NCBI GenBank assembly: GCA_009886115.1
Contig: VFJJ01000043.1
Coordinates: 47,082-67,081 of the forward strand
DNA from: Actinomycetota bacterium
GTDB lineage: Bacteria > Actinomycetota > Acidimicrobiia > IMCC26256 > VFJJ01
DNA: 20,000 nt
Direction of reading: 5' to 3'
A program made the position numbers and the translations under genes. Position 1 is the stretch's first letter; the number at the start of each line of letters is the position of its first letter. Positions 3,596 to 19,143 of the stretch are shown one piece after another. Under the pieces are notes generated by a model. The model was not told the DNA's origin. It did no database searches and saw only the letters and a list, made by a program, of their open reading frames with translations.

Positions 3596-4081
3596 CTACC
3601 AGGTCGTCCCGCTGGTGACGGTCAGGGCGTGGTTCGCGGTGCAGAGCGAGGCATCGGTGGTGGAGCCGTAGAAGGGACTGGCCTCGACCCCGACGACGTC
3701 GTGGATCACGTAGCAGGTCCCGCTGGTGGCCATCACCGCGATCCCGAGCTCCTGGTCGTTCGACGTGACCCCCACGCTGACGACCTCCACGTCGTTCGAC
3801 GGAGCGGCGGGGGCCAGGTAGGTGTAGGTGGGCTCGATCGTGGGCAGCGCGGCTTCGGCGTCGCCGTAGGTGGAGGCGTCGGCGTAGAGGATCCTCGCTG
3901 CGGTCAGGACGTTGCGGGCGACCGACTGCGCCTCGCGGTTGTCGGCCCGGGTTCGGGCACTCAAGAACGTGGGCACGGCGATCACGATCAACACGCCGAG
4001 CACCAGCGCGACGACGAGCAGCTCGACCAGGGTGAACCCCCGGTCGTCGCGTCGCGTCCTGCGTCGGAGAACCTGGATCAT
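3596..4081 (-). CDS. Type IV pilin (class III signal peptide), 161 aa
   Basis: C-terminal part of ORF 3596..4702, with ATG 4081 preceded by GAGGGG. MIQVLRRRTRRDDRG|FTLVELLVVALVLGVLIVIAVPTF has a basic leader, G-1/F+1/E+5 and a hydrophobic helix. Two C-terminal Cys. Adjacent to the prepilin peptidase. Confidence 0.93.
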   Translation of the reverse strand: MIQVLRRRTRRDDRGFTLVELLVVALVLGVLIVIAVPTFLSARTRADNREAQSVARNVLTAARILYADASTYGDAEAALPTIEPTYTYLAPAAPSNDVEVVSVGVTSNDQELGIAVMATSGTCYVIHDVVGVEASPFYGSTTDASLCTANHALTVTSGTTW

Positions 4082-4151
4082 CGATGCGCCCCCTCGGCCC
4101 GGCTTGCGGAGTCGCGCGGCGGTGCCGCGGCTCCCGTGTCTGTCCCAACAC

Positions 4152-4178
4152 ATCGGAACCGGACCCGTCCAGGTTGAG
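4152..4178 (-). promoter_or_regulatory. Putative FliA/WhiG (sigma-28 family) promoter for the pilin gene
   Basis: CTCA-N17-TCCGAT about 70 nt upstream of the pilin ATG. One mismatch to the actinobacterial FliA-type motif CTCA-N15-17-GCCGA(A/T) as recalled. Confidence 0.45.
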
Positions 4179-4254
4179 CGCGTTTCGCCCTGAACGGACA
4201 TATCGCTCGTGCGGCAGGCGGCCGAGGGCGGGCTCGGGCGCCTCTCAGCGACCG

Positions 4255-5112
4255 CTACACCGTCATGCCGCCGTCGACGGGGATGACCGCGCCGGTGAGG
4301 CCGCTGGCCTCGGGCGAGCACAGGTAGGCGATGGCCGAGGCGACCTCCTGGGGATCGAGGAGGCGGCCGGTGAGGTGGTGCACGGCGAAGTCGTCGACCG
4401 AGGCCAGGTCGTAGATGACAGCCGAGGCTGCCAGCATGGGGGTGCGCATCGACCCGGGACAGACCGCATTGGCGGTCACGCCCAGCGGCCCGAGATCGCA
4501 GGCCAGGCCGCGGACGTAGCCGACCACCGCGTGCTTGGCGGCGTTGTAGGCGCCGAGCCGGGGCATGCCGGTGAGACCGGCCGCGGAGGCGACGGCGACG
4601 AACCGTCCCCGACCCGCAGGAGCCGTGGCCACGATGGCGGGGATGGCCGCCCCGGCGAGGTGGTGGACCCCGTCGACGTTGACGGCGAACAGCTCGCGCC
4701 ACAGATCGGACGGGGTCTCCCAGGCTGGTGGTCCGCCGCCCATGAGCCCGGCGCAGGCGATCGCCGCGTCGAGACGCCCGAAGCGCGCGACGACGTCGGT
4801 CACGGCCCTCACCAGGGAGTGAGCCTCGCGAACGTCAGCGACCAGGGCCATCGCCGGCGACCCCGCAGCCTCGCAGGCGTCGCGCACCGCTTCCAGCTCC
4901 GCGACCGTGGCCTGTGGGTACGGCACGGCCGGGTTGGGCGCGCAGGCGTCGACCAGGCCGACCCGCCATCCCCGGCTGGCGAGCAGTCGAGCGGTCGCGG
5001 CCCCGAGGCCGCGTGCGGCCCCGGTGACGATGGCGACCGGGGCCGCGCCGGGGCCGCCCTCGGAGCCAGCAGCGCCCCCAGAATCGGCAGCGCCCTCAGA
5101 AGGTGATGACAC
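4255..5112 (-). CDS. Mycofactocin-coupled SDR family oxidoreductase
   Basis: TGAARGLG Rossmann motif, YNAAK catalytic motif, NAVCPG and VDGG. Carries the insert typical of MFT-associated SDRs (VDACAPNPAVPYPQATVAELEA). Exact start uncertain. Confidence 0.9.
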   Translation of the reverse strand: MSSPSEGAADSGGAAGSEGGPGAAPVAIVTGAARGLGAATARLLASRGWRVGLVDACAPNPAVPYPQATVAELEAVRDACEAAGSPAMALVADVREAHSLVRAVTDVVARFGRLDAAIACAGLMGGGPPAWETPSDLWRELFAVNVDGVHHLAGAAIPAIVATAPAGRGRFVAVASAAGLTGMPRLGAYNAAKHAVVGYVRGLACDLGPLGVTANAVCPGSMRTPMLAASAVIYDLASVDDFAVHHLTGRLLDPQEVASAIAYLCSPEASGLTGAVIPVDGGMTV

Positions 5113-6202
5113 CGCGGATGTTCTTGCCGGCCAGGAGGTCGGCGTAACCCTCGTTGATCTGGTCGAGCGTGTACGTGGTGGTGATCAGCTCGTCGAGCTT
5201 GAGGAGGCCGTCTCGGTAGAGCCCCAGCAGCTTGGGGATGTCGACACGAGGGTTGCAGGATCCGAACAGCGTGCCCCTGAGCTGCTTGTTCATGAGCGTC
5301 AGATCGAGCAGGCTGAGCTGCACGTCCATCTGCATCATCGGAGCGACGGCCGTCGCCACGCAGGTGCCGCCCTTGGCCGTGAGGGCCATGCCCGGAGCGA
5401 TGAGATCGCCCGTGAGCACCCCCGGGCACAGGATCACCGAGTTCGCCATGAGACCGTACGAGAGCTGCTGGACCAGCGGCATGGCCTCCTCCATGGAGGC
5501 GACGGCGTGGGTCGCCCCGAGGCTCATGGCGGTCTCGCGCTTGAACTCGAGGGGGTCGACGGCCACCACGTACCGAGCTCCGGCCATCCGGGCGCCCTGG
5601 ACCGCGTTCATGCCGATCCCGCCGCATCCGACGACGACGACCGTGTCGCCGACCGTGACCTCGGCCCGGTTGACCGCCGATCCCCAGCCGGTGGCCACGC
5701 CGCAGCTCACCAACGCGACCTGCGGCATCGGGAGGTCGGGCTCCACCTTGACGAGCGACATCTCACTGCACACCGTGTGCTCGGAGAACGTCCCGATGGC
5801 ACACATCGAGTTGAGCTCGATCCCCTTGGCCCGGACCCGACTCGTGCCGTCGAGCATCCGACCCGAGAGCAGCATCGCTCCGGTGTCGCAGAGGTTCTGT
5901 CGACCCGTCGAGCACATCCGGCACCGGCCGCACGACGGGATGAACGAGAACGAGACGTGATCGCCCGGAGCGAGGTCGGCGACACCCGGGCCGACCTCCA
6001 TCACGACGCCGGCACCCTCATGACCGCCGATGATGTTCGGGGCGGCGGGCATGTCACCGGTGATGAGGTGCTCGTCGGAGTGGCACATCCCTGCTGCGGC
6101 CATCTTGACCAGGACCTCACCGGTCTTGGGCCCGTCGAGATCGACGTCCTCGACCGACCACTGCTTGGCCCCGTCCCACAGCACCGCAGCACGCGTCTTC
6201 AT
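5096..6202 (-). CDS. Zn-dependent NDMA-type (nicotinoprotein) alcohol dehydrogenase, Rxyl_3153-like, mycofactocin-associated
   Basis: MKTRAAVLW, GMCHSDEH, GGHEGAG, structural Zn CGRCRMC..C, CGVATGWGSAV, GCGGIG. ATG 6202 is preceded by GGAGAG and is preferred over GTG 6211. Confidence 0.92.
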   Translation of the reverse strand: MKTRAAVLWDGAKQWSVEDVDLDGPKTGEVLVKMAAAGMCHSDEHLITGDMPAAPNIIGGHEGAGVVMEVGPGVADLAPGDHVSFSFIPSCGRCRMCSTGRQNLCDTGAMLLSGRMLDGTSRVRAKGIELNSMCAIGTFSEHTVCSEMSLVKVEPDLPMPQVALVSCGVATGWGSAVNRAEVTVGDTVVVVGCGGIGMNAVQGARMAGARYVVAVDPLEFKRETAMSLGATHAVASMEEAMPLVQQLSYGLMANSVILCPGVLTGDLIAPGMALTAKGGTCVATAVAPMMQMDVQLSLLDLTLMNKQLRGTLFGSCNPRVDIPKLLGLYRDGLLKLDELITTTYTLDQINEGYADLLAGKNIRGVITF

Positions 6203-6248
6203 GCTCTCCACCGTTTCGTCTCGCCGACTCGGCCCGATCGTTCGCCGT

Positions 6249-6254
6249 ACGCTA
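6249..6254 (-). promoter_or_regulatory. Putative -10 element (TAGCGT) for the ADH-SDR pair
   Basis: TANNNT hexamer 47 nt upstream of the ADH start, in a 350-bp intergenic region that is otherwise very GC-rich. Confidence 0.4.
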
Positions 6255-6494
6255 GTGCCACCGTCGACGTCGATCGACCCCGCCGACCCCGGACCGGGTC
6301 CCGTGCCGCACGGCGGCCCCGCCTCGCCGGCGACCGGCGTGCGCGCCGTGCGCGCCGAGGGCGCCGACCTCCGGCGAGCCGGCGGGCGGCAACTCGCCGT
6401 CAGTGGTCCTCGGTCCCGGTCGGACGGCCCCTGCGGTTGGCGGCGAGACGGTATCCGCCCACGCTGGCGGCGCTGACGCTCACTCTCGAGATCG

Positions 6495-6530
6495 CTGCGA
6501 CCCTGCCGGCCATCGGCTTGCTGGTCGCAG
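6495..6530 (-). terminator. Stem-loop downstream of the VWA stop (possible terminator or stabilizer)
   Basis: Perfect 8-bp arms CTGCGACC (6495-6502) and GGTCGCAG (6523-6530) plus inner GCCG/CGGC, 27 nt after the VWA stop. No U-tract. Confidence 0.35.
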
Positions 6531-6556
6531 GCATGCCACCCACGGTGATCCGACCG

Positions 6557-7525
6557 TCATGCGATCAACCCCCGGAGCGCCTCGGGCACCCGCGATGGGC
6601 CGGCCAGCTCCACACAGCGTCCCCCGCCGGCCCGGGCCAGCGCCCTGGCGTCTTCAGCGTCGCCGAGGGGTGCCACCACGTGCAACTGCTCGAGTCGCCG
6701 GGCCTCGACCACGGGATCGGTGCCTGCTGTCGGACGGCCGTCCGAGAGCAAGATCACGACCTTGCGCCGCGCCGGGCTTCGTTCGAGCTGCTCACGAGCC
6801 ACGCGCAGGGCCAGCGAGAGATTCGTCGTCCCGTACCCCTTGAGCGCGAGGAGGTCGTCGACGACCTCCTCGACGTCGCGGGGCACGTCCTGGGACTTGA
6901 GGACGATGGCGTCACCGGCGAAGGCGACGACCGAGTGATCGAGGGGCGCCCGCCAGGCGACGGTGGCGGCAGCGACGGCCGCGGCCGCCAGTCGGGCCCC
7001 GCCCATCGAGCCGCTGCGGTCGACCAGCAGGCACACGGCCAGGCGAGCCTTCACCCAATCGCGCGACCGGAGCTCGTCGATGGCCGGCGCTCGACCGGCG
7101 GCGCGGGCCTCGACGAGAGCGTCGAGCGAGGCGTCGATGTCGAGATCGCCACCGTCGCTCCATCGGGCCGTGCGTAGACGCTCGATGCCCCGGCGAGCGA
7201 GCGCATCACTTCGGGCGAAGCGGACGATCACCCGCCCGGCCAGCCGGCGCGCGAGCTCCTTGAGCTGGGCGTCCGTCACGTTCGCCAGGTCGGCCAGGAG
7301 GCCGAGCGCGTCGTCGGGGGACTCCTCGAACACCTGGGCGAACGCATCGACGTCGAGCTCGCCGGTCTGGGGTGAGACCCGTTCGAACTCGGGGCGCCGG
7401 GCGAGCAGCTGCCGGGCGGTGGTGCGACGACGCTCCTGGCGGACGGCGTCTGCGGCCTCGTCGCCCTCTCGGATCAGGCCCCGTCCCGCCGAGCCTCGGC
7501 CGGGAACGGGGCTGGAGCTTTTCCC
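6557..7525 (-). CDS. VWA (MIDAS) domain coding region, probably translated as the C-terminal half of a -1 frameshift fusion with the upstream AAA+ ATPase
   Basis: MIDAS DRSGS...GTT...LLSDG and GDLDIDASLD pre-VWA segment. The frame is open from 7537 to 6557 but has no ATG/GTG/TTG until GTG 7333, which lacks an SD. Confidence 0.85.
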   Translation of the reverse strand, partial: GKSSSPVPGRGSAGRGLIREGDEAADAVRQERRRTTARQLLARRPEFERVSPQTGELDVDAFAQVFEESPDDALGLLADLANVTDAQLKELARRLAGRVIVRFARSDALARRGIERLRTARWSDGGDLDIDASLDALVEARAAGRAPAIDELRSRDWVKARLAVCLLVDRSGSMGGARLAAAAVAAATVAWRAPLDHSVVAFAGDAIVLKSQDVPRDVEEVVDDLLALKGYGTTNLSLALRVAREQLERSPARRKVVILLSDGRPTAGTDPVVEARRLEQLHVVAPLGDAEDARALARAGGGRCVELAGPSRVPEALRGLIA

Positions 7526-8535
7526 GCGGCCCCGGCTTCACGCTCGCCGTCGTCCCGATCGTCACCGACGTCGTCGTCGTTCCCGGTGCCGTCCCCGGCG
7601 TCGGTGTCGTCGGTGTCGTCGTCGGCGGGGAAGATGCGGTCGTAGAGCTCCTCGATCACCGACTCGGGCGTGCGCGACGAGCCCTCGTACAGGCGGATCC
7701 GACCCGACAGCGCACTCACCGCAGCGTCGAGAGCCACCGAACGCTGGCGCGGCGGCCGGGCCCGGATCAGCCCCAGCTCGAGAGCCAGGATCTCGCAGTC
7801 GACGGCCCCCCGCACCGACGATCCGACCCGCACCTCGGGATGCTCGCGGGTGGCTCGCACCAGCTCCACGACCCGCTGGCGCCACCGCCGGCCGGACGCG
7901 CCGACATCCTCGGCCTCGGTGTACGGCGCCACGGCCCGCCCCACGATCTCGGCCTCGTCGGCCGCGCTCTGGTAGCCCATGGCGATGCGGCAGGTCCGGT
8001 CGTAGATCGCCGCCGAGATGCGTGCCGTCCCCACCGCGTCGAACGGGTTCATGGCTGCGACCAGCCGAAACCCGGGCGAAGCGGCGATGCGACCGACCCG
8101 GGGGACGTGCAGCTCGCCCTCGCTCATCACCGTGACGAGGACGTTGAGCGTCTCCTCGGGGATCCGGTTGATCTCCTCCAGGTACAGCAGGCCACCCTCG
8201 TGGAGGGCCACGGCCAGCGGGCCGGGCACGAAGGTCGACGGGCCGTACCCCTCGCTGAGAACCCGGGCCGGGTCGTGCGCGCCGACGAGGCGGGCCGGCG
8301 TGAGCTCGGCGTTGCCCTCGACGAACTCGAAGGGCACACCGCACCGGTGGGCCACCGAGCGCAACAGCGTCGACTTCCCGGTCCCGGGTGGGCCTTCGAG
8401 CAGCACGTGACGGCTCCCGGCCAGGGCCGCCACGACGATCTCGATCTCGCGCCGGCGACCCACGACGTCGAGCGTCAGAGCGTCGAGCAGCGCCCGACCA
8501 TCGGTGAACGCGGCGGGCTGGCGGGACGGGCTCAT
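7474..8535 (-). CDS. MoxR-family AAA+ ATPase (353 aa in the zero frame)
   Basis: Walker A GPPGTGKS, Walker B LLYLEEINR, AAMNP sensor I, AIYDR Arg finger, GSSVRG. Acidic low-complexity C-terminal tail. Confidence 0.93.
   Translation of the reverse strand: MSPSRQPAAFTDGRALLDALTLDVVGRRREIEIVVAALAGSRHVLLEGPPGTGKSTLLRSVAHRCGVPFEFVEGNAELTPARLVGAHDPARVLSEGYGPSTFVPGPLAVALHEGGLLYLEEINRIPEETLNVLVTVMSEGELHVPRVGRIAASPGFRLVAAMNPFDAVGTARISAAIYDRTCRIAMGYQSAADEAEIVGRAVAPYTEAEDVGASGRRWRQRVVELVRATREHPEVRVGSSVRGAVDCEILALELGLIRARPPRQRSVALDAAVSALSGRIRLYEGSSRTPESVIEELYDRIFPADDDTDDTDAGDGTGNDDDVGDDRDDGEREAGAAGKAPAPFPAEARRDGA
7478..7525 (-). other. Predicted programmed -1 ribosomal frameshift signal (G_GGA_AAA, 6-nt spacer, 15-bp hairpin)
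   Basis: Heptamer at 7525-7519 in X_XXY_YYZ phase with the ATPase frame. Spacer GCTCCA. Hairpin GCCCCGU(U)CCC(G)GCCGA-GGC-UCGGCGGGACGGGGC at 7512-7478. The -1 frame is the VWA frame. Confidence 0.8.
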
Positions 8536-8625: not shown

Positions 8626-9336
8626 TCACCCTTCCGGGGTCGGCGCCGTGGAGGAGAAACCCGGGCGGAGGAGCTCCAGCAGTGCATCGACGAGCCCGTC
8701 GAGCAGACGCCGACCTTCGGCGGCCGAGGCGCCGGTGGCGTCACCGAGCACCCCGTCGAGGGCGTGGGGTCGCACCCCGTCGAGGTGGAGCCCGTCGAGG
8801 AGCTCGGCCAGCGGCGTCGTGTTGCCCACCGGTCGGACGGGCCGGACGGTCTCGGGAGCGAGGGCCAGCATCAGCGAGGTCTCGGTGCGACCGGCATGGG
8901 CGTCGCCACCGGGTACCGACGCAAACCAGGCGATCGCCGGCCGTCCCTCGCGACAGAGCTGGTCGGCGGCCTGCCTGACGGTCGGGGCGTTCCCGCCGTG
9001 GCCGCACACGAACACCGTTCGGGCGAAGGTGTGCGCCGCCGATCGGCCCAGCTCCACGAGCACGGCCCGGAGCGCGTCGTGGCCGATCGAGAGGGTGCCG
9101 GGGAAGCCCTGGTGCTCGCCCGAGGCACCGAAGACCAGCGCCGGAGCCACGACCAGGCCCGAGGCCCGACCGGCTGCGGCCCGGGCCACGCCGGTGGCCA
9201 CCACGGTGTCGGTGTCGAACGGGAGGTGGGGCCCGTGCTGCTCGGTCGCCCCCAGGGGCACGAGCAACGTCTCGTGGGCATCGGGCCCCGCTCGAACCTG
9301 GCTCAGCTCGGTCCAGGTCGCGTGCGCCAGGTCCAT
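8626..9336 (-). CDS. mftE: Mycofactocin biosynthesis peptidase (creatininase family)
   Basis: MDLAHATWTE..., PLGATEQHGPHLPFDTD, GASGEHQGFPGTLSIG, GHGGN, DAHAGRTETS, GVLGDATGAS. Start at ATG 9336; the ORF track over-extends it. Confidence 0.95.
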   Translation of the reverse strand: MDLAHATWTELSQVRAGPDAHETLLVPLGATEQHGPHLPFDTDTVVATGVARAAAGRASGLVVAPALVFGASGEHQGFPGTLSIGHDALRAVLVELGRSAAHTFARTVFVCGHGGNAPTVRQAADQLCREGRPAIAWFASVPGGDAHAGRTETSLMLALAPETVRPVRPVGNTTPLAELLDGLHLDGVRPHALDGVLGDATGASAAEGRRLLDGLVDALLELLRPGFSSTAPTPEG

Positions 9337-9409
9337 CAGCCGACGGCCGGCGCCGAGACCGCGTCGCGACCCGCCGGGCGAGGCCTCAGCAGCACGCGAC
9401 CCGAGCGGG

Positions 9410-10378
9410 TCACGGGAGGTATCCCCAGGTCCGGAGCTGTCCGACGATCTCGGCTGCGGCCTCCTCAGGTTCGAGATGCACGAGCCGAGGGGGGCTGCGA
9501 TCGACGAGCGCTCCGGTGAGGGCCAGGATGCGTTCGAGCGGCGTGAGCTCGGCGGACGGCGGCGACAGCACCCGGGGACGCGGACGATAGGGGCCGCGTC
9601 GGACGACCACGGGATCGACACGCTCCGACACCGTCAGCCGGGCGGCGGACGCGGCCACGACGACGCCAACGGGCTGATCGCGCGCCGCCAGCACTCCGGC
9701 GAGGCTGGCCCGACGGAGCCGGACCGGTCCGCCCTCGACCGAGATCACGACCGGCGAACCGAGACGGAGTCGCTCGCGGCGGCCCCCGTCGAGGCGACGT
9801 TCGACGACTCCGGTGGTGACGTCGATGGTCACCACACCGAGGGCCTGCCCGACGCCGAGCTCGGCCGCCAGGAACGCCGGCACCGAGGCCGAGCCCCGGT
9901 CGAGCGACGCGTTCCCGCACACCACCAGGTGCGATCCGTCGACCACCCCGGCGAGCTGGTGGGCCACGACCGGCGACGGAGCGTCGTCCGGGAGGCCGTC
10001 GATGCGCACCGCCGCGCTGGCACCCGAGGCCAGGGCTTCACGGAGCATCGCATCGGCCGCGGCCGGACCGACGCACACCACCGTCACGGTCGAACGCTCC
10101 AGCGGCGCCACTCCGCGACCAGCACCCTCAACAGGGCTAACGCTTGGGCTAACGCCGTCGGCAGGACCAACGCCGTCGGAGGGCGCAACCCGGTGGGCCC
10201 GGTCAGCAGCGTCGGCGGCGTCCGCGGCGTCGGCGATCCGTAGCGCCCATTCGAGTGCAGCCTCGTCGGCGGGCGACGGTCCGAGGCTGTGACGGTCGAC
10301 GGTGACCGTCCCGGTGAGGGCGTCCACCTCGAACCGCCGGGCCACGAGCTTCCAGCACACCGCCAGCGCCACGCTCAT
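9410..10378 (-). CDS. Electron transfer flavoprotein beta subunit (FixA/EtfB-like), mycofactocin-associated
   Basis: MSVALAVCWK, SPADEAALEWALRIA, VVCVGP, LREALASGA, VVCGNASLDRGSASVPAFLAAELG. ATG 10378 overlaps the fixX stop (ATGA). Confidence 0.88.
   Translation of the reverse strand: MSVALAVCWKLVARRFEVDALTGTVTVDRHSLGPSPADEAALEWALRIADAADAADAADRAHRVAPSDGVGPADGVSPSVSPVEGAGRGVAPLERSTVTVVCVGPAAADAMLREALASGASAAVRIDGLPDDAPSPVVAHQLAGVVDGSHLVVCGNASLDRGSASVPAFLAAELGVGQALGVVTIDVTTGVVERRLDGGRRERLRLGSPVVISVEGGPVRLRRASLAGVLAARDQPVGVVVAASAARLTVSERVDPVVVRRGPYRPRPRVLSPPSAELTPLERILALTGALVDRSPPRLVHLEPEEAAAEIVGQLRTWGYLP
10130..10236 (-). repeat. Short-repeat-derived insertion in the ETF beta gene
   Basis: GGGCTAACGC x2 (12-bp period), AACGCCGTCGG x2 (18-bp period) and 9-bp ADA repeats. 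Encodes ADAADAADAADRAHRVAPSDGVGPADGVSPSVSPV. Confidence 0.7.
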
Positions 10379-10683: not shown

Positions 10684-12026
10684 CAGCCGTAGCTCCTGAT
10701 CGCTGTCCAACCGTCGCGAGCCAGATCACGCAGACGCACCCTGGATCGGCGGGCCGACTTCCACGCGAGCCGAGCGATGCCCTGCTTGGGGGCGGGGTTG
10801 CGCACCGTGAAGAGGTCCTCGACGACGTCGCACGTGAGCTGCGGATACTGGAACTGGGCTCGCCCCGACAAGAGGAACTCGGGGACCCGGCGCAGCTTCT
10901 TGTGGTCGGCGAGCACGAAGTTGGCCTCGAGTCGGGCGCGGTAGCCGGCGAGGCCTCGCGCCGCGGTCGTGTCGCCGCTGCGGATGGCCTCGACGGCGGT
11001 CGCCCCGGCGGCCAGGCCCGAGCCGATCGCGAAGTTCACACCCTCGAGCCAGACCCCGGCCGCGAGGCACAGCCCGGCGGCGTCGCCGGCCACGAGCAGA
11101 CCGTCGCCGGCCAGGGTGGGGATCTGGTCGTAGCCGCCTTCGGGGATCAGGTGGGCCGAGTACTCGACGATCTCGCCGCCGGCGACAAATGGCGCGATCG
11201 AGGGGTGGGCCTTGAAGCCAGCGAGGATCTCCTCGGGGCGGTGCTTCGACGCGGCCAGGCCCGGGAGGTGCAGCACGACGCCGACGGAGATCGTGTCGAG
11301 GTTCGTGTAGAGGAAGCCGCCCCCGGGGACGTCCATCGTGCAGCCGACGACCTCGAAGTCGGCACCCTCACGGCCCGTGAGATTGAACCGCTGTTCGATG
11401 CTCTCCCGGGGCAGTCGCAGCACTTCCTTGACGCCGAGCGTGGTGTGCTCGGCCTGCTCGCTCGCCCCCGGATACAGGCCGGCGGCCTTGGCGATGAACG
11501 AGTTGACGCCGTCGCAGGCGATGACCACGCGGGCTCGTAGCGCTGAGGTCGAAGCGCCCGTGGCGGGGTCGGGCCGGTCGGTGACCACACCGACCACCCG
11601 CCCGGACGGGTCACGCACGACATCGGTGGCCACCGTGGAGGTGACCAGGACGCTGCCCGCGGCCTCGGCCTTGGCCGCCAGCCACGCGTCGAAGTCGGGG
11701 CGCAGCGCCGTCGCGCCGTTGTACGGGGGCCCGGCCCAGGTCTGCGATCGGAAGTCGAGGCACAGGCTCTGCGTGGGAGTGAGGATCATCGTGCCGCGTC
11801 GGGTGATCCACCGCTGGATGGGAATCTCGTCCCACCAATTGGGAATGACCTGGTCGAGGACCCGTCCGTAGATCACGCCGCCGTACATGTTCTTCGACCC
11901 GGGGAACGGGCCGCGCTCGAGCAGGGCCACCCGGAGCCCGGCCCGGGCGACGGCCAACGCAGCCGCCGATCCCGCCGGGCCGGCGCCCACCACGATCACG
12001 TCGAACGGGTCGGGGGCCGCGGTCAT
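10683..12026 (-). CDS. fixC: FixC-like FAD-dependent ETF:quinone oxidoreductase
   Basis: FDVIVVGAGPAG, ERGPFPGSKNMYGG, DGVNS, GGGFLYTN, EYSAHLIPEGG, GDAAG. Lies between etfA and fixX. Confidence 0.92.
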   Translation of the reverse strand: MTAAPDPFDVIVVGAGPAGSAAALAVARAGLRVALLERGPFPGSKNMYGGVIYGRVLDQVIPNWWDEIPIQRWITRRGTMILTPTQSLCLDFRSQTWAGPPYNGATALRPDFDAWLAAKAEAAGSVLVTSTVATDVVRDPSGRVVGVVTDRPDPATGASTSALRARVVIACDGVNSFIAKAAGLYPGASEQAEHTTLGVKEVLRLPRESIEQRFNLTGREGADFEVVGCTMDVPGGGFLYTNLDTISVGVVLHLPGLAASKHRPEEILAGFKAHPSIAPFVAGGEIVEYSAHLIPEGGYDQIPTLAGDGLLVAGDAAGLCLAAGVWLEGVNFAIGSGLAAGATAVEAIRSGDTTAARGLAGYRARLEANFVLADHKKLRRVPEFLLSGRAQFQYPQLTCDVVEDLFTVRNPAPKQGIARLAWKSARRSRVRLRDLARDGWTAIRSYG

Positions 12027-13294
12027 GTTCCTCCAACGCTCGGGAGTGCGTCCTGGTCGACGGGCTCGGCGGGGTCGAACGGCTCGGCGGGGTCGACGGC
12101 GATGAGCCGGGCCAGCGCATCGAGCACGGCCCGGGCGTCGCTCACGATCGCCAGGTCGGCCAGGCCCATCATGGGGCAGCTCGGATCGGTGTTCACCGAG
12201 ATCACATGGTCGGGATCACCCAGACCGGTCACGTGCTGCACGGCGCCGCTGATCCCGAAGGCAAGGTAGAGCCGGGGGTTCACGGCCACCCCCGTGGTCC
12301 CGATCTGGCGCTCGAAGGGGAGCCAGCCGGCGTCGGTGGCGACCCTGGTTCCGCCGAGCGAGGCTCCGAAGCGGGCGCCGATGGCCGCCAGCAGGTCGAA
12401 GCGCTGCGTGCTCGCCCCGTCGTCGGGGCCGGCCAAACCCTGGCCGCCGGCGACGATCCGGCGGGCCTCGGCCAGGTCGACGGTGCTCGGGTCGGCAGCC
12501 ACGAGCTCCACCAGCTCGGGATCGCCGGCCCCCATTCCGACGCTCACCACGACCGACGTGACCTCGTTCGCGGAAGGTGCCGGCGCGGCCGGGCCGGAGG
12601 TCGCGCCAGGCCCGGGCGCCCCACTCACCCCGGCCGCGATGCCTCGGGAGCCGGGGACGAGCGTCGCCACCGCCGGGCCGGCGAGGCGCACGTCGGTCTC
12701 GACCCCGCCGTGGTGGGTCACGACCGTGGCGCCGTGGAGGTCGATGCGGACCGCGCCCGCGACCAGGGGTCGATGAAGGACATGGGCCAACCGCGGCGCG
12801 AGGTCTCGGCCGTCGGCCGAGGCCGGCAGCACCACGACCGTCTCCGATGCCAGTGCCGCTGCCAGGGCCTGCGCCCACGCCGCCGGTGCGTACACGCCGA
12901 GCTCCGAGACCCGCAGCAGGCGCGCGGGGACGGCCAGGGTCGCTGCGGCCTCGACGACGCCCGAGCCCACGAGCCACACCCGTCCGCCGGCTTCGGCGAC
13001 GACCTCGTCGGCCCCGAGCGGGAGCTGACCGTCACGCACGGGCACGAGCGCCAGCATCCCGGCGTCGGGATCGCCGCTGGCGACGGTCCGGAGACCGGTG
13101 TCGGGGCCGGGATGGGCGCGGGGATCGGTGCCCCCGACCGCGTCGACGGGGGCACCAGCCGCCGGGACAGCACCAACCGCCGGAGCAGCGCCAGCGGCCG
13201 GGGCCACAAAGCGGCCGTCGGGGCCCCTTCGACGAGCCGGTCGAGGCGCGCCCCGACCGGCGTCGAGTGGTTCATCGGGTCGGCGCGCGCTCAC
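12023..13294 (-). CDS. Electron transfer flavoprotein alpha subunit (FixB/EtfA-like), mycofactocin-associated
   Basis: C-terminal part of ORF 12023..16174. GRDLAPRLA, DLAEARRIVAGGQG, GGTRVATDAGW, RQIGTTG, YLAFGISGAVQHVTG, VNTDP. Start is either GTG 13294 (GTGA-coupled to OYE2) or ATG 13057 (MLALVPVRDG). Confidence 0.9.
   Translation of the reverse strand: MSARRPDEPLDAGRGAPRPARRRGPDGRFVAPAAGAAPAVGAVPAAGAPVDAVGGTDPRAHPGPDTGLRTVASGDPDAGMLALVPVRDGQLPLGADEVVAEAGGRVWLVGSGVVEAAATLAVPARLLRVSELGVYAPAAWAQALAAALASETVVVLPASADGRDLAPRLAHVLHRPLVAGAVRIDLHGATVVTHHGGVETDVRLAGPAVATLVPGSRGIAAGVSGAPGPGATSGPAAPAPSANEVTSVVVSVGMGAGDPELVELVAADPSTVDLAEARRIVAGGQGLAGPDDGASTQRFDLLAAIGARFGASLGGTRVATDAGWLPFERQIGTTGVAVNPRLYLAFGISGAVQHVTGLGDPDHVISVNTDPSCPMMGLADLAIVSDARAVLDALARLIAVDPAEPFDPAEPVDQDALPSVGGT
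12063..12096 (-). repeat. 18-bp-period direct repeat in the ETF alpha C-terminal tail
   Basis: GGCTCGGCGGGGTCGA at 12063-12078 and 12081-12096. Encodes DPAEPFDPAEP. Confidence 0.75.
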
Positions 13295-15303
13295 AACCGC
13301 TCCCCCACCCGCTGCCCCTCGACGACCGCGGCGTGGATGCGGCGCGGCGCCACGCAGTCGCCCACACGCTCGACCCGGATCCCGGCGTCGCGACAGGCCC
13401 GCCAGAGACCGTCGGCGGGCGCGGCGGGAACGCACAACACCAGCCAGTCGACCTCGCGGAGCTCGGACCCGCCGGTCGGATGGTGCACGAGCTGCAAGGC
13501 CAGGCCCGGCCGGCCGTCGGCGCACGGCCCGGCACCCATCACGAGGGTGTCGGTCGTCTGGGCGATGCCCTTGGCCGACGCTCGCATCCACCACTGCTCC
13601 AGGTCGAGCGTGATCCCGAGGTCTTGGCCCACGACCATGCCCGGGGTGATCACCTCGACCGCGCAGCCCCGATCGGCGAGCAGCTCGGCGACCGACGTGG
13701 CCTGGTGGAACCCCAGCTCGTCGAACACGGCCACCCGGCCTGTCGGTGCCGCCCGTCCGGCGAGCACGTCGGTCACATCGACGACCAGCGCCCCGGGGGC
13801 TTCGGCCAGGGACGGGTCGACCTGCGGTACCCACCAGGGCCGTTCGGGCACCGAACCCGTGGCGACCACCACGACGTCGGGCCGCAGCGCCCGCAGCGAG
13901 TCGACCGAGGCCTCCTCGCCGTAGCGCATCGTCACGCCGGCCCGGCGGCACTCGGTGACCTGGTTGCGAATCACGTCGCCGAGCTCGGCCCGGTTGGCCA
14001 CCGTGGCCGCCAGACGGACCTGCCCGCCCGGCACCGGATCGCGCTCGATGACCGTCACGCGATGACCCCGATTCGCGGCGGCGATGGCGGCCTGCATCCC
14101 GGCCGGGCCCGCCCCGACCACGACCACCCGTTGCGGACGGTCGACCAGGGCCACCGCCGAGGCCCACCGGCCCCGCTCGGCCTCGCGGCCCGTGCGCGGG
14201 TTCTCGATGCAGCCCAGCCAGCGGTTGAGACCCATCCGCCCGACGCACTCCTGGTTGCACGACAGGCACAGGCGCGTGTCGTCGACATGACCGGAACGGG
14301 CCTTGGCCACGAAGTCGGCGTCGGCGATCTGGCCGCGCACCACCCCGACGAGGTCGCAGTGCCCGGCATCGAGGGCCCGCTCGGCCTGCAGCGGGTCCTT
14401 GAACCGACCGACGCCGACCACCGGCAACGAGATCGCCTTGCGAATCGCGCTCGGGATGAACATGGCGTATCCGGGCGGCACGTGCATCGACGCCTCGATC
14501 ATGTACAGGGTCGCGGTGGCGACGCCGATCGAGGTGTTGACGTAGTCGACCTGCCCGGTGGCTTCGACCATCCGGGCCACCTCGACAGCATCGTCGATGG
14601 TCGTGCCGTGCTCGATCAGCTCGTCGCCGCACAGGCGCACGCCGAGCGCCAGGTCGCGCCCGATCGTCTCCCTGACTGCGGCCACGATCTCGAGCAGCAA
14701 CCGAGCCCGCCGCGCCAACGTGCCGCCGTAGTCGTCGGTCCGGTGGTTCGTGGCGAGAGACAGGAAGCCCCGCACGATCGACGAGTGCGAGCATTGGAGC
14801 TCGATGCCGTCGAAGCCGCCCTGGCGGCAGTGCCCGGCCACGAGGGCGTATCCGGCCACGATCTCGGCGATCTCGCGGACCTCGAGCTCCTTGGGCACCT
14901 CCCGGAACAGCGGGTCGGGCACGCTCGAGGGGGCCCACACCGGCAAGCGGGAGTACATCGACGATGCCTGCCCGCCGTTGTGGTTGATCTGGGCGAAGAT
15001 CGGCGTGCCGTGGGCGTGCACGGCGTCGGTGATCTGCCGGTACCCGGGGATCACCGACGGCGAGAACCCGTGGATGAGCTTCTCGTAGGGCCAGTCGGTC
15101 GGGTGCACCGAGTGCTCCTCGGTGATGATCAGCCCCGCACCCCCCGCGGCCCGGGCTTCGTAGTACGCAGCGTGCTGATCGGTCGCGTGGCCGTCCTCGG
15201 CGTAGTTCGTGAGGTGGGCGCTGAACACGACCCGGTTCTCGACGGTGACCGGTCCGAGCCGCAGCGGGCTGAACAAGCGGGGATAGCGCGCGACGGTGGG
15301 CAT
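13291..15303 (-). CDS. Mycofactocin system FadH/OYE family oxidoreductase 2
   Basis: LFSPLRLG..NRVVFSAHLTNYA, TDWPYEKLIHG, CLSCNQEC..GCIENP [4Fe-4S] motif, VVGAGPAG, GDCVAPR. Confidence 0.92.
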   Translation of the reverse strand: MPTVARYPRLFSPLRLGPVTVENRVVFSAHLTNYAEDGHATDQHAAYYEARAAGGAGLIITEEHSVHPTDWPYEKLIHGFSPSVIPGYRQITDAVHAHGTPIFAQINHNGGQASSMYSRLPVWAPSSVPDPLFREVPKELEVREIAEIVAGYALVAGHCRQGGFDGIELQCSHSSIVRGFLSLATNHRTDDYGGTLARRARLLLEIVAAVRETIGRDLALGVRLCGDELIEHGTTIDDAVEVARMVEATGQVDYVNTSIGVATATLYMIEASMHVPPGYAMFIPSAIRKAISLPVVGVGRFKDPLQAERALDAGHCDLVGVVRGQIADADFVAKARSGHVDDTRLCLSCNQECVGRMGLNRWLGCIENPRTGREAERGRWASAVALVDRPQRVVVVGAGPAGMQAAIAAANRGHRVTVIERDPVPGGQVRLAATVANRAELGDVIRNQVTECRRAGVTMRYGEEASVDSLRALRPDVVVVATGSVPERPWWVPQVDPSLAEAPGALVVDVTDVLAGRAAPTGRVAVFDELGFHQATSVAELLADRGCAVEVITPGMVVGQDLGITLDLEQWWMRASAKGIAQTTDTLVMGAGPCADGRPGLALQLVHHPTGGSELREVDWLVLCVPAAPADGLWRACRDAGIRVERVGDCVAPRRIHAAVVEGQRVGERL

Positions 15304-15306
15304 CGG

Positions 15307-17445
15307 TCAGGCCCCCGGACCGTCGAGCGCCAGCGCCGCCCGTCGACCTTCGAGGATGGCCTCGTGGATGGTGCGCGGGGCGACGGCGTCGCCGGCGCGG
15401 GGATGGCGCTCGCCGGTGGCGCGCCACAGGGCGTCGTCGGGCAGGAGCGTGCCGCAATCGACGAGCGCCGCGCAGGCGATGACCGTGGTGAGGCCCGTGT
15501 ACCGCTCCTCGACGACGACCCCGGTCGTACCGAGGCTCCGCAGCACCGATCGCTTCACGAGCGCGACGCCCGCTTGGAGCAGCCGGGTGTTGGCTGGGGC
15601 CAGGTCGCCGGTGAGCGAGAGCTGGGTGCCGACGGTGAAGTCGGGGCAGACCAGCGTGACCTGCCGGCCCCGCGATGCCAGGAGCTCGGCGATCGAGACG
15701 GCGACGGGTCCTCCGACGGGGTCCCAGACCACGACCGGGCCCTCCGGCAACGCCGCGTCTAGACCCCGGACGGTGCCGGTGGGCGACCGGCGCTCGGTGG
15801 CCAGCAGGTCGGATGCGCTCCACACCACGACGCCGCTCGACCCGCTCGACGATGCCCCGCCCGACCCGCGCGCGGGGGCCCCGCCGGTCGACGGCGGCGA
15901 GGTACCGGCGTAGGGCCGCAGCCCTGGACGGGCGCCGGTGCACAGCACGACGGCGTGGTCGCCGGCGATGCGTTCGACGAGCCCCGGTTCGATCTCGCTG
16001 CTGGTCTCGATGGTGACCCCGAGGCGGCGGCACTCGGCTTCGAGCCAGTCGGCGATGAGCGCCAGCCTCGACCGACCCGAGCCCGCCGCGGCCGTCCGCA
16101 CCGATCCGCCGAGCCCGCTCGACCGCTCGACGAGGCGCACCCGGTGTCCTCGGGCTGCGGCGACCCGGGCGCACTCCAGGCCGGCGACACCCGCCCCGAC
16201 AACGAGCACGTCGCGTGGCGCGCCGGCTGTCCGTCCGGTTCCTTCACCGATGTCGACGCCGATGTCGACGCCGGCGCAGGGATCGGGGTCGTCGAGCTCG
16301 TGGCCCGACCGGGGCTCGCCGACACAGCTGACGATGGGGTTGCGGCCGTCGCGCACCTGGCACTTCTGGTTGCAGAGCAGGCACGGACGCACGCGGTCGG
16401 CGTGGCCGGCGGCGACCTTCGCACCCAGGTCGGGGTCGGCGATCTGGGCCCTGGTCATCTCGACGGCGTCGGCCCGGGCCGGATCGTCGAAGCCGCCGAG
16501 CGCCCACTCGGCCTGGCCCCACTCGACGATCGAGCCCTGGGCCACGACCGCGACGCCCGGTCGGACAGCCGTGACGGCTTCTCGGATCTGCGCCACGAGA
16601 CCGAGGTTGAATCCGGGCTCGGTGTGGCCGTCGGGCCGCGTGGCGCCCGTCGAGAAGATCGAGCCCCGCACCACGGTGATGGCATCGACGGTCTCGGCCA
16701 GCGCGGCGGCGACCAGGGCACCCACGTCGGCGACGATGCCAGCCCAGGGGGCGAGCTCGTCGCACGAGAGCCGGATGGCCAGAACGGCGTCGGGGCCGAT
16801 CGCATCACGAACAGCGGCCAGCACGCGCTGGGCGAATCGCAGGCGGAGGCCGTCGTCATGGCCGCCGTCGGACCCCGTCCACTCGTCGCTGCGCTGGTTC
16901 GTGAGCCCGGAGAGGAACTGGCGGATGAGCGAGAACTGGCCGACGTTCACGTCGACACCGTCACATCCCGCGGCCAGCGCGCCCCGGGCGGCCTCGGCGA
17001 ACCCGGCGATCACCGCGGCGATCTCGTCGGGCTCCATGGCCTGCGGAACCTCGCGGGTCGCCACGTCGGGGACCCGTGACGGCGCCCACATCGGGAGCTG
17101 CGAGAACGCCGACGAGCCCTGCGATCCGGCATGGTTGAGCCCGGCCAGAACGAGTGGCCGAACGCCCTCGCCTCGAGCCGCGGCGGCACACGCATCGACG
17201 ATCGTCCGCCAGCCCGGTGCGCACGCCGAGGCGAGCGGAGCCCGCTCGTACGGCCAGTCGGACGGGTGCACCGAGGCGTCCTCGACCACGATCACGCCCG
17301 CCCCGCCCAAGGCGCGACGCTCGTAGTAGGCGACGTGACGCTCCGACAGGGCCCGGCGGCGACCCAGGTTCGTCTCGTGCGCACCGAACACGATCCGGTT
17401 GGGGGCAGTTCGGTTCCCGAGCCGGAGGGGCTCGAGCAGCTTCAC
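15307..17445 (-). CDS. Mycofactocin system FadH/OYE family oxidoreductase 1
   Basis: GTG 17445 overlaps the mftC stop. LLEPLRLG..NRIVFGAHETNL, SDWPYERAPLA, CLLCNQKC..SCVGEP, VVGAGVAG, GDAVAPR. Confidence 0.9.
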   Translation of the reverse strand: MKLLEPLRLGNRTAPNRIVFGAHETNLGRRRALSERHVAYYERRALGGAGVIVVEDASVHPSDWPYERAPLASACAPGWRTIVDACAAAARGEGVRPLVLAGLNHAGSQGSSAFSQLPMWAPSRVPDVATREVPQAMEPDEIAAVIAGFAEAARGALAAGCDGVDVNVGQFSLIRQFLSGLTNQRSDEWTGSDGGHDDGLRLRFAQRVLAAVRDAIGPDAVLAIRLSCDELAPWAGIVADVGALVAAALAETVDAITVVRGSIFSTGATRPDGHTEPGFNLGLVAQIREAVTAVRPGVAVVAQGSIVEWGQAEWALGGFDDPARADAVEMTRAQIADPDLGAKVAAGHADRVRPCLLCNQKCQVRDGRNPIVSCVGEPRSGHELDDPDPCAGVDIGVDIGEGTGRTAGAPRDVLVVGAGVAGLECARVAAARGHRVRLVERSSGLGGSVRTAAAGSGRSRLALIADWLEAECRRLGVTIETSSEIEPGLVERIAGDHAVVLCTGARPGLRPYAGTSPPSTGGAPARGSGGASSSGSSGVVVWSASDLLATERRSPTGTVRGLDAALPEGPVVVWDPVGGPVAVSIAELLASRGRQVTLVCPDFTVGTQLSLTGDLAPANTRLLQAGVALVKRSVLRSLGTTGVVVEERYTGLTTVIACAALVDCGTLLPDDALWRATGERHPRAGDAVAPRTIHEAILEGRRAALALDGPGA

Positions 17446-18641
17446 GAGCTGGAGACTACGACCCGGTGCCGGGTGGGCTTCAACGTGACGTTGGTGGACA
17501 CGGCGGGACGGGCGTCGGCCTTGGGGATCTTCGAGTGCCCGGGCCCGGACGACGGCAGCGAGGCCGGGTCGACGGCAGCGAGTGCGTCGTCGGCGTTGCC
17601 CCACACGCACTCAGGATCGGGGGCATCGAGCGGCAGGCCGGTGAAGAACTTCGCCGCCATGCATCCGCCGCCGCAGGCGTCGTACGAGCCGCACGATGCG
17701 CACGCACCCGGTGACTGGGGCTCGCGCAGGCCCACGAACAGCTCGGACTCCCGCCACACGCTCGTGAAGCCGCCCCGGTCGCGCACCGACCCGGCTCGGA
17801 ACTCGTCGTGCAGCACGAACGGGCAGGCGTAGACGTCGCCGATCGGGTCGATCAGGCACACGACCCGTCCGGCCCCGCAGAGGTTGAGGCCGGGCAGGCT
17901 CTCGCCCAGGGCCGAGAGGTGGAAGAACGAGTCGCCGGTGAGGATGCCGGGGCGTTCGATGAGGAAGCGGTAGAGATCGCGCTGCTGCGCGTTCGTGGGA
18001 TGCAGGTCGTTCCACACGTCGGCCCCGCGACCCGACGGCCGCAGCCGGGTGAGCCTCAGCTGCGCGCCGTAGGAGTCGGCGATGGCCTCGAAGGCCGGGA
18101 GCTGCGGGATGTTCTGGCGGGTGACGACCACCGAGATCTTGAAGGGGCCGAAACCTGCGGCCGCGAGATGGTCCATGGCCCGGCGGGCGGCGTCGTACGA
18201 GCCGACGCCGCGCACCGCGTCGTTCGTCGCGGCGTCGGCCCCGTCGAGGCTGATCTGCACGTCGATGTAGTCGGTCGCGGTGAGGCGACGGGCTTTCTCG
18301 GCGTCGATGAAGTACCCGTTGGTCGAGAACTTCACCCCGACACCGCGCGACACCGAGTAGTCGAGCAGCTCGAAGAAGTCGCGCCTGACCATGGGCTCGC
18401 CCCCACCGATGTTCACGTAGAACACCTGCAGGTCGTGCAGCTCGTCGATGACCGCCTTGCACTCGGCCGTGGTGAGCTCCCGGGGGTCGCGTCGCCCGCT
18501 GGAGCTCAGGCAGTGCACACACTCGAGGTTGCAGGCGTAGGTGAGCTCCCACGTGAGACAGATGGGGGCGTCGAGGCCGCTCTTGAGCTGCTCGACCAGG
18601 CGAGGAGCAGCCGCAGTGGTGGATCCGGGCGAGGGGGGCAT
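17442..18641 (-). CDS. mftC: Mycofactocin radical SAM/SPASM maturase
   Basis: LDAPICLTWELTYACNLECVHC (CxxxCxxC), GGGEP, GLNLCGAGRVVCLIDPIGDVYACPF, CASCGSYDACGGGCMAAKFFTG. Confidence 0.98.
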   Translation of the reverse strand: MPPSPGSTTAAAPRLVEQLKSGLDAPICLTWELTYACNLECVHCLSSSGRRDPRELTTAECKAVIDELHDLQVFYVNIGGGEPMVRRDFFELLDYSVSRGVGVKFSTNGYFIDAEKARRLTATDYIDVQISLDGADAATNDAVRGVGSYDAARRAMDHLAAAGFGPFKISVVVTRQNIPQLPAFEAIADSYGAQLRLTRLRPSGRGADVWNDLHPTNAQQRDLYRFLIERPGILTGDSFFHLSALGESLPGLNLCGAGRVVCLIDPIGDVYACPFVLHDEFRAGSVRDRGGFTSVWRESELFVGLREPQSPGACASCGSYDACGGGCMAAKFFTGLPLDAPDPECVWGNADDALAAVDPASLPSSGPGHSKIPKADARPAVSTNVTLKPTRHRVVVSSS

Positions 18642-19030
18642 CAGGTCTCCTCACGTGCGGGTGCGCACAGGACTTCGGAGGCCGCGAGCGACGCCAGGGC
18701 CTTGAGGTACGACGAGCGCTGACGGGCGTCGAACGCTCCGGTCGCGATGGCGGCGTCGAGCGCGGCATCGACGGTCGGATGATCGCCGAGCGAGCGCACC
18801 AGCGCGACCAGGGCGTTGCGCTTCAAGAACACGAGACGCCGGTTCCCGTAGTGGTACGCCAGAGCGCCGAACGGCTCGGGGCGCAAAGCCACCTGGGGAT
18901 GCAGGGCGTAGGGACGGGCCGGGTCGAACCCGATGTCGGCGGTGCCGGGGTGGTCACCCACCGGACCGGCATCGAGGTCGTCATCGGGACCGTCGACGAC
19001 TCGGCTCGTCTCGACCTCGAGCGTGCTCAA
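18641..19030 (-). CDS. mftB: Mycofactocin biosynthesis chaperone (RRE domain)
   Basis: FDPARPYALHPQVALRPEPFGALAYHYGNRRLVFLK...YLKALASLA. Start is probably TTG 19030 (TTGA overlap with the mftA stop); GTG 19042 is an alternative. Confidence 0.95.
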   Translation of the reverse strand: MSTLEVETSRVVDGPDDDLDAGPVGDHPGTADIGFDPARPYALHPQVALRPEPFGALAYHYGNRRLVFLKRNALVALVRSLGDHPTVDAALDAAIATGAFDARQRSSYLKALASLAASEVLCAPAREET

Positions 19031-19143
19031 TAGACGCCGCACATCCCGTCGATCGAGATCTCCTCGACGAGCAGGTCGTCGTCGACGAGATCGTCGTCAT
19101 CGAGAACGGGGGCGTCCACGGCGGTGATGGCATCGTCGGGCAT
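19027..19143 (-). CDS. mftA: Mycofactocin precursor peptide, 38 aa
   Basis: MPDDAITAVDAPVLDDDDLVDDDLLVEEISIDGMCGVY*, with the invariant IDGMCGVY C-terminus. GAGGAG RBS at 19155-19150. Hidden at the end of the spurious ORF 19027..19962. Confidence 0.98.
   Translation of the reverse strand: MPDDAITAVDAPVLDDDDLVDDDLLVEEISIDGMCGVY

Follow-up and report, generated by a model that had tools for sequence, protein, structure and literature searches.

A probable programmed −1 ribosomal frameshift that makes an AAA+ ATPase and an AAA+-VWA fusion from one gene in a mycofactocin locus

Introduction

How is a protein translated when its reading frame lies one base out of register with the gene before it, overlaps the end of that gene and offers no conventional start codon near its beginning? 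This question is raised by two open reading frames (ORFs) in a 20-kb stretch of an Actinomycetota genome (contig VFJJ01000043.1, positions 47,082 to 67,081; hereafter the window, whose own numbering is used throughout). The window has a GC content of 72% and carries a mycofactocin locus on its minus strand, within which an ATPase of the AAA+ type is followed by a frame encoding a VWA domain. On the grounds of the sequence itself and of its comparison with homologous loci, it seems very probable that the two frames are a single recoded gene, in which a programmed −1 ribosomal frameshift yields both the ATPase and an AAA+-linker-VWA protein. The features on which the argument depends, with lengths in nucleotides (nt), base pairs (bp) or amino acids (aa), are the following.

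7474..8535, minus strand: AAA+ ATPase read in the zero frame, 353 aa (ORF, Pfam)
7537..7623, minus strand: DDDTDDTDAGDGTGNDDDVGDDRDDGERE, an acidic low-complexity linker that follows the AAA+ lid and precedes the slip site
7538..7540, minus strand: TGA that closes the −1 (VWA) frame upstream
7519..7525, minus strand: slippery heptamer G_GGA_AAA, in X_XXY_YYZ phase with the ATPase frame
7513..7518, minus strand: spacer GCTCCA, 6 nt
7478..7512, minus strand: candidate stimulatory hairpin of 15 bp (13 G-C, 2 A-U) with two 1-nt bulges and a 3-nt loop
7474..7476, minus strand: zero-frame stop TGA, 49 nt past the first heptamer base
6557..7519, minus strand: −1-frame part after the shift, 320 codons and a stop, comprising a disordered stretch, a helical N-domain and the VWA domain

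A probable frameshift cassette at the junction of the two frames

The ATPase frame reads GCG GGA AAA GCT at 7527-7516, and a slip of one base at the heptamer would re-pair GGA to GGG in the P site and AAA to AAA in the A site. The VWA frame is exactly the −1 frame and is open from 7537 to 6557; because the TGA at 7540-7538 closes it upstream, any slip is confined to the stretch from that codon to 7474. No ATG, GTG or TTG occurs in the VWA frame for 68 codons, the first being GTG 7333. The predicted products are 353 aa in the zero frame and 339 + 320 = 659 aa for the fusion. The word AAAA is found once on the minus strand of the window, where it is the run within the heptamer, and not at all on the plus strand, and the lysine codons elsewhere in the two ORFs are AAG in six cases and AAA in none. 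The junction thus has the parts of a canonical −1 frameshift cassette, namely an in-phase X_XXY_YYZ heptamer, a structure 3' of it, and an open −1 frame that encodes a conserved protein without a conserved start.

Each of these elements had been claimed in a sequence-only reading of the stretch, and each was recovered: the in-phase heptamer when the minus strand was read anew, the rarity of the A4 run from the count on both strands, the spacer and the 15-bp hairpin by re-reading and by folding, the frame relation with its two TGA codons, the VWA codons free of a start, the acidic linker in the translation, and the two product sizes. The same reading had stated that most other junctions in the locus use ATGA/TGATG coupling, which agrees with the ORF coordinates, our sole source on this point, at EtfA/FixC (12023-12026) and MftB/MftC (18641).

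In the mechanism that we propose, most ribosomes would stay in the zero frame and end at 7476-7474, releasing the ATPase, while a fraction would slip back by one base on G_GGA_AAA as the hairpin 6 nt downstream resists unwinding. The slipped ribosomes would then read the −1 frame to 6557 and produce the 659-aa AAA+-linker-VWA protein, with a predicted junction of ...AAGK followed by SSSPVPGR.

Conservation of the frame relation and the heptamer

To describe the junction among relatives, the SPECIES-REPRESENTATIVE genomes were scanned with a VWA alignment, which gave 80 loci, mostly from metagenome-assembled genomes (MAGs) of Acidimicrobiia. Together with the window and a locus from a genome of the same genus these make 82 sequences, of which 79 contain both halves; the remaining three lack the upstream part because the VWA lies at a contig edge. 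A second collection came from a metagenome scan seeded with a fused homologue (47 loci, 40 with both halves), and a third from a sample of 401 genomes of the phylum, which is not independent of the species scan since it draws on the same kind of genome collection.

The VWA frame is in the −1 relation to the ATPase in 74 of the 79 loci, in frame in three and in the +1 relation in two. Within the frame overlap of the 74 −1-type loci the slippery site is GGGAAAA in 67, AAAAAAA in two and CCCAAAA in one, with none by the strict rule in four. Two of these four carry G_AAA_AAA (an A6 run), and the other two, L070 (1975-2075) and L075 (3900-4010), have no candidate, GGGGGAA standing in place of the heptamer; L070 is also without a canonical start. 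The metagenome collection gives a similar picture, with 37 −1-type loci (35 with GGGAAAA, one with CCCAAAA, one with none) and three fused ones, and clustering at 90% identity groups the 39 loci that have a heptamer into 20. In the phylum sample all 18 −1-type loci have the heptamer in phase, and the genome of the same genus, at 94% protein identity, agrees with the window in heptamer, frame relation and hairpin. It is clear from these counts that the in-phase heptamer for which the sequence-only reading had asked in an alignment of the junction is conserved. The sequence that flanks it is variable in the alignment profile, and the linker region DDDTDDTDAGDGTGNDDDVGDDRDDGERE differs among homologues in both length and sequence. 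Of 86 junctions, at least 90% have a G directly 3' of the heptamer, which makes GGGAAAAG the conserved word, and this 3' context of the slip site may matter.

Of the five loci that are not of the −1 type, L090 and L092 are true in-frame fusions. L021 and L026 are −1 junctions with the heptamer that have a separate frame break upstream, inside the ATPase, and L064 (3940-3960) reads GGGAAAG, with A3 instead of A4, which places its VWA in the +1 frame. The departures of L064, L021 and L026 have the appearance of recent mutations or of errors of the homopolymer or indel type. One could extend this explanation to the window itself and regard its frame break as an assembly or sequencing indel, or the gene as a decaying pseudogene of a fused ancestor, given that fused homologues exist and that extra frame breaks or an A3 run do appear in these three MAG loci. 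We find this scarcely credible, as the same frame relation recurs in 74/79 species-level and 37/40 metagenome loci with both halves intact and conserved. In addition, positions 7300-7700 are covered by Logan contigs from four public runs (three studies), which match the window with 0 differences and 0 gaps, although one of the four runs may be the window's own source. No RNA run is listed among those that contain the stretch.

A second possibility is that the slippage is transcriptional, with RNA polymerase adding one A on the A run, so that part of the mRNA would carry the two halves in one frame. Longer homopolymers are needed for slippage of this kind, and both the window and 67 of the 74 loci have no more than A4. 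The conserved hairpin at about 5-7 nt and the strict X_XXY_YYZ phase are needed by a ribosomal mechanism and not by polymerase slippage. A few relatives do contain A6 or A7 runs (L024, L035, L031, L052), and poly-A runs whose length tracks efficiency are described, in the passages on which we draw, for the Mg-chelatase genes. Weighing the two sides, we regard a transcriptional origin of the fusion as very improbable.

The codon usage of the family bears on whether the heptamer is kept for the sake of the protein. Lysine is encoded by AAA in 121 of 570 codons (21%) and glycine by GGA in 371 of 3172 (12%), such that the dipeptide G-K would be written GGA-AAA in about 2.5% of cases under protein constraint alone, and only four other occurrences of GGGAAAA are found in 128 kb of the two ORFs. 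With AAA and GGA this rare, a protein-only explanation of the heptamer is unlikely. One might nonetheless propose that heptamer and hairpin persist for another cause, either a G-K...P..G-G linker peptide or an RNA element acting in mRNA processing or pausing. The peptide GKSxxP[DE]xGG in the VWA frame does recur among homologues, proline and glycine codons are naturally complementary, and formal covariation is weak (see below). A constraint on the peptide would not, however, fix third codon positions, and the variants AAAAAAA, CCCAAAA and G_AAA_AAA alter the peptide and keep the slippery pattern, so that what is retained is slipperiness and not the peptide. In other classes of the phylum, most fused genes have neither the heptamer nor the GK...P..G peptide, which indicates that the protein does not need the peptide and favors a role at the level of RNA. 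The −1 frame is moreover open from the heptamer onward in 70/70 loci with a heptamer, with the limit that the heptamer was searched for only inside the frame overlap. Conservation for such another cause therefore seems to us quite improbable.

Start codons and RNA structure

If the VWA protein were translated on its own, one would look for a start codon at a conserved position, and the sequence-only reading had anticipated that homologues would lack one. This is what we observe. The zero-frame stop of relatives lies 10-58 nt from the heptamer and may be TGA, TAA or TAG; the codon overlapping it is ATG in only one of 74 loci, for which reason an ATGA-type overlap does not account for the −1 relation. 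Relative to this stop, the position of the first canonical start in the VWA frame varies between −691 and +191 nt, and 39 of 70 loci have no ATG, GTG or TTG between the heptamer and a conserved RRTT[SA]R block. In 50 of the 80 loci, tblastn matches to the VWA-frame query start no later than query residue 6, which is where the GKS at the heptamer lies.

The downstream hairpin is also a family trait. A perfect stem of at least 5 bp that starts 4-8 nt after the heptamer is present in 66 of 70 loci, compared to 3337 of 13097 control positions (25.5%) in the same genes. The spacer ranges from 4 to 9 nt and is most commonly 6 nt, the stem is commonly of 5-6 bp and the loop of 4 nt. The arms differ between lineages (GCCCC/GGGGC in 41 loci, CCGCC/GGCGG in 5, GCCGC/GCGGC in 5, CCACC/GGTGG in 3, and others), and in the same-genus genome the apical stem stays paired despite two changes (A-U to G-U). 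In the window, the 36 nt directly after the site fold with −20.9 kcal/mol relative to a mean of −11.8 kcal/mol in the same genes, which places them in the lowest 1.1%.

Several observations weigh against the recoding of a single gene, and they concern the starts, the structure and the independence of the loci. With regard to the starts, L075 lacks the heptamer and offers a GTG start 16 nt ahead of the stop of its ATPase, as if in this lineage the cassette had been converted to a pair of ordinary genes that overlap. In 31 of the 70 loci a candidate start exists upstream of the RRTT block, most commonly a GTG 9 codons before it (19 loci). From the start in L075 and these candidates elsewhere it follows that independent initiation of the VWA protein is workable in some relatives. 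For the window the corresponding explanation is that of two ordinary genes, with the VWA protein starting by itself either at CTG 7477, which forms a CTGA overlap suited to termination-reinitiation, or at GTG 7333, and with the heptamer being functionless. CTG 7477 stands exactly at the start of the folded part of the VWA-frame product (residue 21), and many VWA proteins in databases are annotated from near this position or at MAE..RRTTSRR. Against it, no start position is conserved and the stop itself shifts by 48 nt among relatives, while initiation at GTG 7333 would drop 48 confidently folded and conserved residues. Separate initiation also leaves unexplained why the rare GGA-AAA codons are present in 67 of 74 loci and again in the in-frame fusions. 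We consider two ordinary genes improbable on this balance. A related candidate, restart at CTG because the stop is frequently CTGA, was dropped, since the position of the stop against the VWA sequence is not fixed and leucine is commonly encoded by CTG.

With regard to the structure, a 71-nt fold around the site has a z-score of −1.0, with 30 of 200 shuffled sequences folding equally well; in DNA of such high GC content this z-score is uninformative, and the within-gene controls given above were therefore used instead. The hairpins of the family are mostly short (5-6 bp), and part of their complementarity could be created by peptide constraint, because the arms encode proline (CCN) and glycine (GGN) in the VWA frame. 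When RNAalifold was applied to 86 junctions aligned without gaps, no consensus pairs were predicted, a null result attributable to stems that are out of register between classes. Rfam has no match in the window at gathering thresholds. Pairing in a fixed register in the commonest class is only weakly above its controls, at 68.1% versus 64.7% after shuffling (reached by 2 of 500 shuffles) and 61.6% when slid by +1. As to the covarying arms for which the sequence-only reading had asked, the hairpin is kept with differing arms, and formal measures of covariation are weak. The evidence from structure is weaker than that from the heptamer. Finally, as the loci are related to one another, their counts overstate their independence.

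Fused relatives and a paralogous pair

Homologues in which the two halves are naturally fused in frame, another expectation of the sequence-only reading, do exist, and they are informative about the function of the site. All five in-frame fusions (L090, L092, L133, L136, L139) keep the in-phase G_GGA_AAA and a downstream hairpin, and in each the −1 frame meets a stop 3-10 codons past the heptamer. A −1 shift would then extend the ATPase into the VWA part in the split layout and cut the fusion down to the ATPase in the fused layout, giving the same two kinds of product. That the site is kept in both layouts is expected if making both products is the selected function. Unless the efficiency of shifting is near one half, the sequences of the in-frame fusions argue against a simple rule, of the kind suggested in the sequence-only reading, by which few VWA parts are supplied per hexamer.

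A broader scenario is possible, if on the whole doubtful. The slip site may be a two-way isoform switch that is older than the family split, which would imply that about half of the ribosomes shift and that the two products form a mixed ring at a ratio of roughly 1:1, like the two-tier arrangement of ChlI/ChlD. With its stem of proline and glycine codons in an acidic linker, the module may be homologous to the cassette of the frameshifted chelatase genes (fs-chlD) discussed below, and its products may be a maturation machine dedicated to mycofactocin-dependent alcohol dehydrogenases. If true, homology to the fs-chlD cassette would make recoding ancestral to AAA+-VWA motors.

A paralogous AAA+/VWA pair, 37% identical in the VWA part, presents a different arrangement, in which the halves are in the same frame with a single TGA between them (...AKPG*RALD...). 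It is found in the window's own genome on another contig (L013:259-2226, also L151), in the same-genus genome (L012) and in another family of the phylum (L150). The peptide between the stop and any start is similar in the distant genome (PKQLDTAPALY vs. PKQLERAPALF). Among the 401 sampled genomes the same-frame TGA pair occurs only in G000 and G280, other relatives being plain fusions. Readthrough of the stop codon could here yield products of the two kinds named above, or the pair may be no more than adjacent genes.

The two proteins and their predicted role

The ATPase has the Walker A motif GPPGTGKS (residues 48-55) and LLYLEE in the Walker B region, and it matches the Pfam families AAA_5 (94.2 bits, cut-off 22) and AAA_3 (47.6 bits, cut-off 27). 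The nearest solved chains are the AAA domains of midasin, NorQ, CbbQ, MoxR (2r44) and CobS, with BchI a weaker match. Its sequence thus points to an ATPase of the MoxR/CbbQ-NorQ-GvpN-like type. Compared with the named subfamilies GvpN, NorQ, CbbQ and CoxD it reaches no curated cut-off, the best being GvpN with 60 bits versus 266.8, such that the label "MoxR" given by the sequence-only reading stands at the level of the superfamily and not at that of a named subfamily.

The VWA-frame product matches the Pfam families VWA_CoxE, VWA_2 and VWA, and its metal ion-dependent adhesion site (MIDAS) is intact (DRSGS...T...D), with D173, S175, S177, T238 and D266 invariant in 34 sequences. The structural model has a predicted local distance difference test score (pLDDT) of 84.7. 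Residues 1-20 are disordered, and residues 21-68, which lie upstream of GTG 7333, are modeled as folded (block pLDDT of 92, 79, 69, 80 and 89). The best fold matches of the model are NorD chains in NorQD complexes (E 4.5e-10, template modeling score (TM) 0.43-0.58).

With this in mind, we infer that the two products co-assemble in a MoxR-type ring, with the VWA/MIDAS part acting as an adaptor, as NorD does on NorQ. Of the 79 related loci, 55 have a homologue of the neighboring alcohol dehydrogenase, which as a rule shares the strand and sits immediately upstream; unlike the window, most relatives have the dehydrogenase ahead of the ATPase. MftC lies within about 3 kb in 22 loci, and MftE occurs in 14. 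By analogy with the known systems considered in the next section, the AAA+/VWA products may form an ATP-driven maturation or remodeling factor for the neighboring mycofactocin-type alcohol dehydrogenase, which is the likely client of the ring.

Relation to known recoded genes and to AAA+/VWA systems

Few conserved −1 frameshifts are known from bacterial genes that are chromosomal and non-mobile, among them those of dnaX and the chlD chelatases. In the passages cited here, the fs-chlD genes of Mg- and Co-chelatases are described as pairs of ORFs, each near 1 kb and annotated as separate genes, that a −1 shift connects, with fused homologues elsewhere, with 10-63% shifting in E. coli reporters, and with an occurrence in several phyla including Actinobacteria (Antonov et al. 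2013, PMC3711429; Kuznetsov et al. 2022, PMC9227772; Atkins et al. 2016, PMC5009743). As far as these descriptions go, the window family has in common with fs-chlD an upstream AAA+ ORF, a downstream VWA ORF in the −1 frame, a slip site in the linker, AAA+ and AAA+-VWA products, and a downstream stem with a pyrimidine-rich 5' arm and a purine-rich 3' arm. The slip site itself differs, being A_AAA_AAR or a poly-A run in the fs-chlD genes so described and G_GGA_AAA in the window family. Unlike in fs-chlD, the neighbor is an alcohol dehydrogenase and no chelatase subunit, and the ATPase is nearer to NorQ, CbbQ and midasin than to BchI.

The layout in the window is an AAA+ N-terminal part, an acidic/proline-rich linker and a VWA C-terminal part, joined by the predicted −1 shift within the linker. 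The family models do not identify the gene as chlD. Against the ChlD/BchD model TIGR02031 (cut-off 499.55) the ATPase scores 35.8 and the fused homologue L090 34.6, and against TIGR02442 (putative cobaltochelatase, cut-off 779.45) the ATPase scores 46.8, the VWA protein 37.6 and L090 57. CobN/ChlH (PF02514) was not found in the window's own genome (G000), which is 95.6% complete; the control search gave PF02514 matches in 5 of 14 control genomes. The analogy to chlD drawn by the sequence-only reading thus holds for the mechanism and fails, by model cut-offs, for the identity of the gene. The gene is best filed with the known kind "AAA+ / AAA+-VWA by −1 frameshift", its protein family and metabolic context differing from those of chlD.

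In E. coli dnaX, a cellular AAA+ gene, a long and a short product (tau and gamma) are made through one −1 slip site with a 3' hairpin. The five fused relatives share this polarity, as their long product comes from the zero frame and the −1 frame ends early. The polarity in the window is the reverse, the shift making the long product, and both the protein family and the heptamer differ from those of dnaX. No conserved upstream Shine-Dalgarno stimulator was seen. The G/GT tail-chaperone genes of phages use a heptamer of the type G_GGA_AAN at which a −1 shift extends a short protein, usually with no strong 3' structure. These genes are viral and belong to an unrelated protein family, and their likeness to the window lies in the type of heptamer and in a shift that extends a short protein.

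For the protein pair as such, the closest systems are those of NorQ/NorD, CbbQ/CbbO and CobS/CobT, which, as far as the cited accounts describe them, likewise have an AAA_5-type ATPase and a VWA/MIDAS protein beside a client enzyme. In NorQD and CobST the VWA partner engages the pore of a MoxR-type hexamer, according to the portions of the reports used here (PMC13036017; bioRxiv 10.64898/2026.10.09.757910). In these accounts the partners NorD, CbbO and CobT are separate genes with their own starts, whereas the VWA of the window would be reached by a frameshift, or is fused in relatives. The predicted client also differs from those of the NorQ/NorD-type systems in being a nicotinoprotein alcohol dehydrogenase.

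Our literature search returned no report of frameshifting in a MoxR/VWA gene, nor of AAA+/VWA pairs within mycofactocin loci; the fs-chlD lists of Antonov 2020 and of the PMC9227772 supplements might include the family. A term search of Sharma et al. 2014 (PMC4066793) returned nothing on G_GGA_AAA. If the proposed recoding is correct, the family adds about a hundred species-level loci, mostly from Acidimicrobiia, with a very clean signal and both gene layouts. The predicted 659-aa product is missing from databases because gene callers give the VWA half arbitrary starts and truncated N-termini. The loci point to an uncharacterized AAA+/VWA chaperone tied to alcohol dehydrogenases of the mycofactocin type, which depend on N,N-dimethyl-4-nitrosoaniline (NDMA).

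Gene layout of the locus

The remaining genes of the window locus that concern us are given below.

near 19027, minus strand: MftA, at the far end of the mft locus
18641-19042, minus strand: MftB
17442-18641, minus strand: MftC
15307-17610, minus strand: first OYE/FadH-type oxidoreductase
13291-15303, minus strand: second OYE/FadH-type oxidoreductase (TIGR03997, 950 bits)
between the OYE/FadH oxidoreductases and MftE, minus strand: EtfA, a FixC-like flavoprotein and EtfB
8626..9621, minus strand: MftE, directly upstream of the ATPase (TIGR03964, 253.5 bits versus a cut-off of 172)
5096..6211, minus strand: NDMA-dependent (mycofactocin-type) Zn alcohol dehydrogenase (TIGR03989, 548 bits versus a cut-off of 440)

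In the family-model searches MftA, MftB, MftC and MftE all score above cut-off within one cluster, as expected of an mft locus. The MftE coordinates are those of the longest ORF, the TIGR03964 match beginning at residue 98. A 1383-aa "ORF" at 12023-16174 on the minus strand is an artefact of the high GC content, with only its last ~320 residues being EtfA; the second mycofactocin OYE/FadH oxidoreductase sits inside this span in another frame. Between the VWA stop and the start of the alcohol dehydrogenase there is a gap of 345 nt (6212-6556, minus strand), which holds an ATG-started ORF of about 45 codons (6534-6400). The ORF at 3596-4702 on the minus strand contains a prepilin-type N-terminal methylation motif at residues 217-243 of its longest frame, and it is probably a short pilin-like gene whose start lies well inside that frame.

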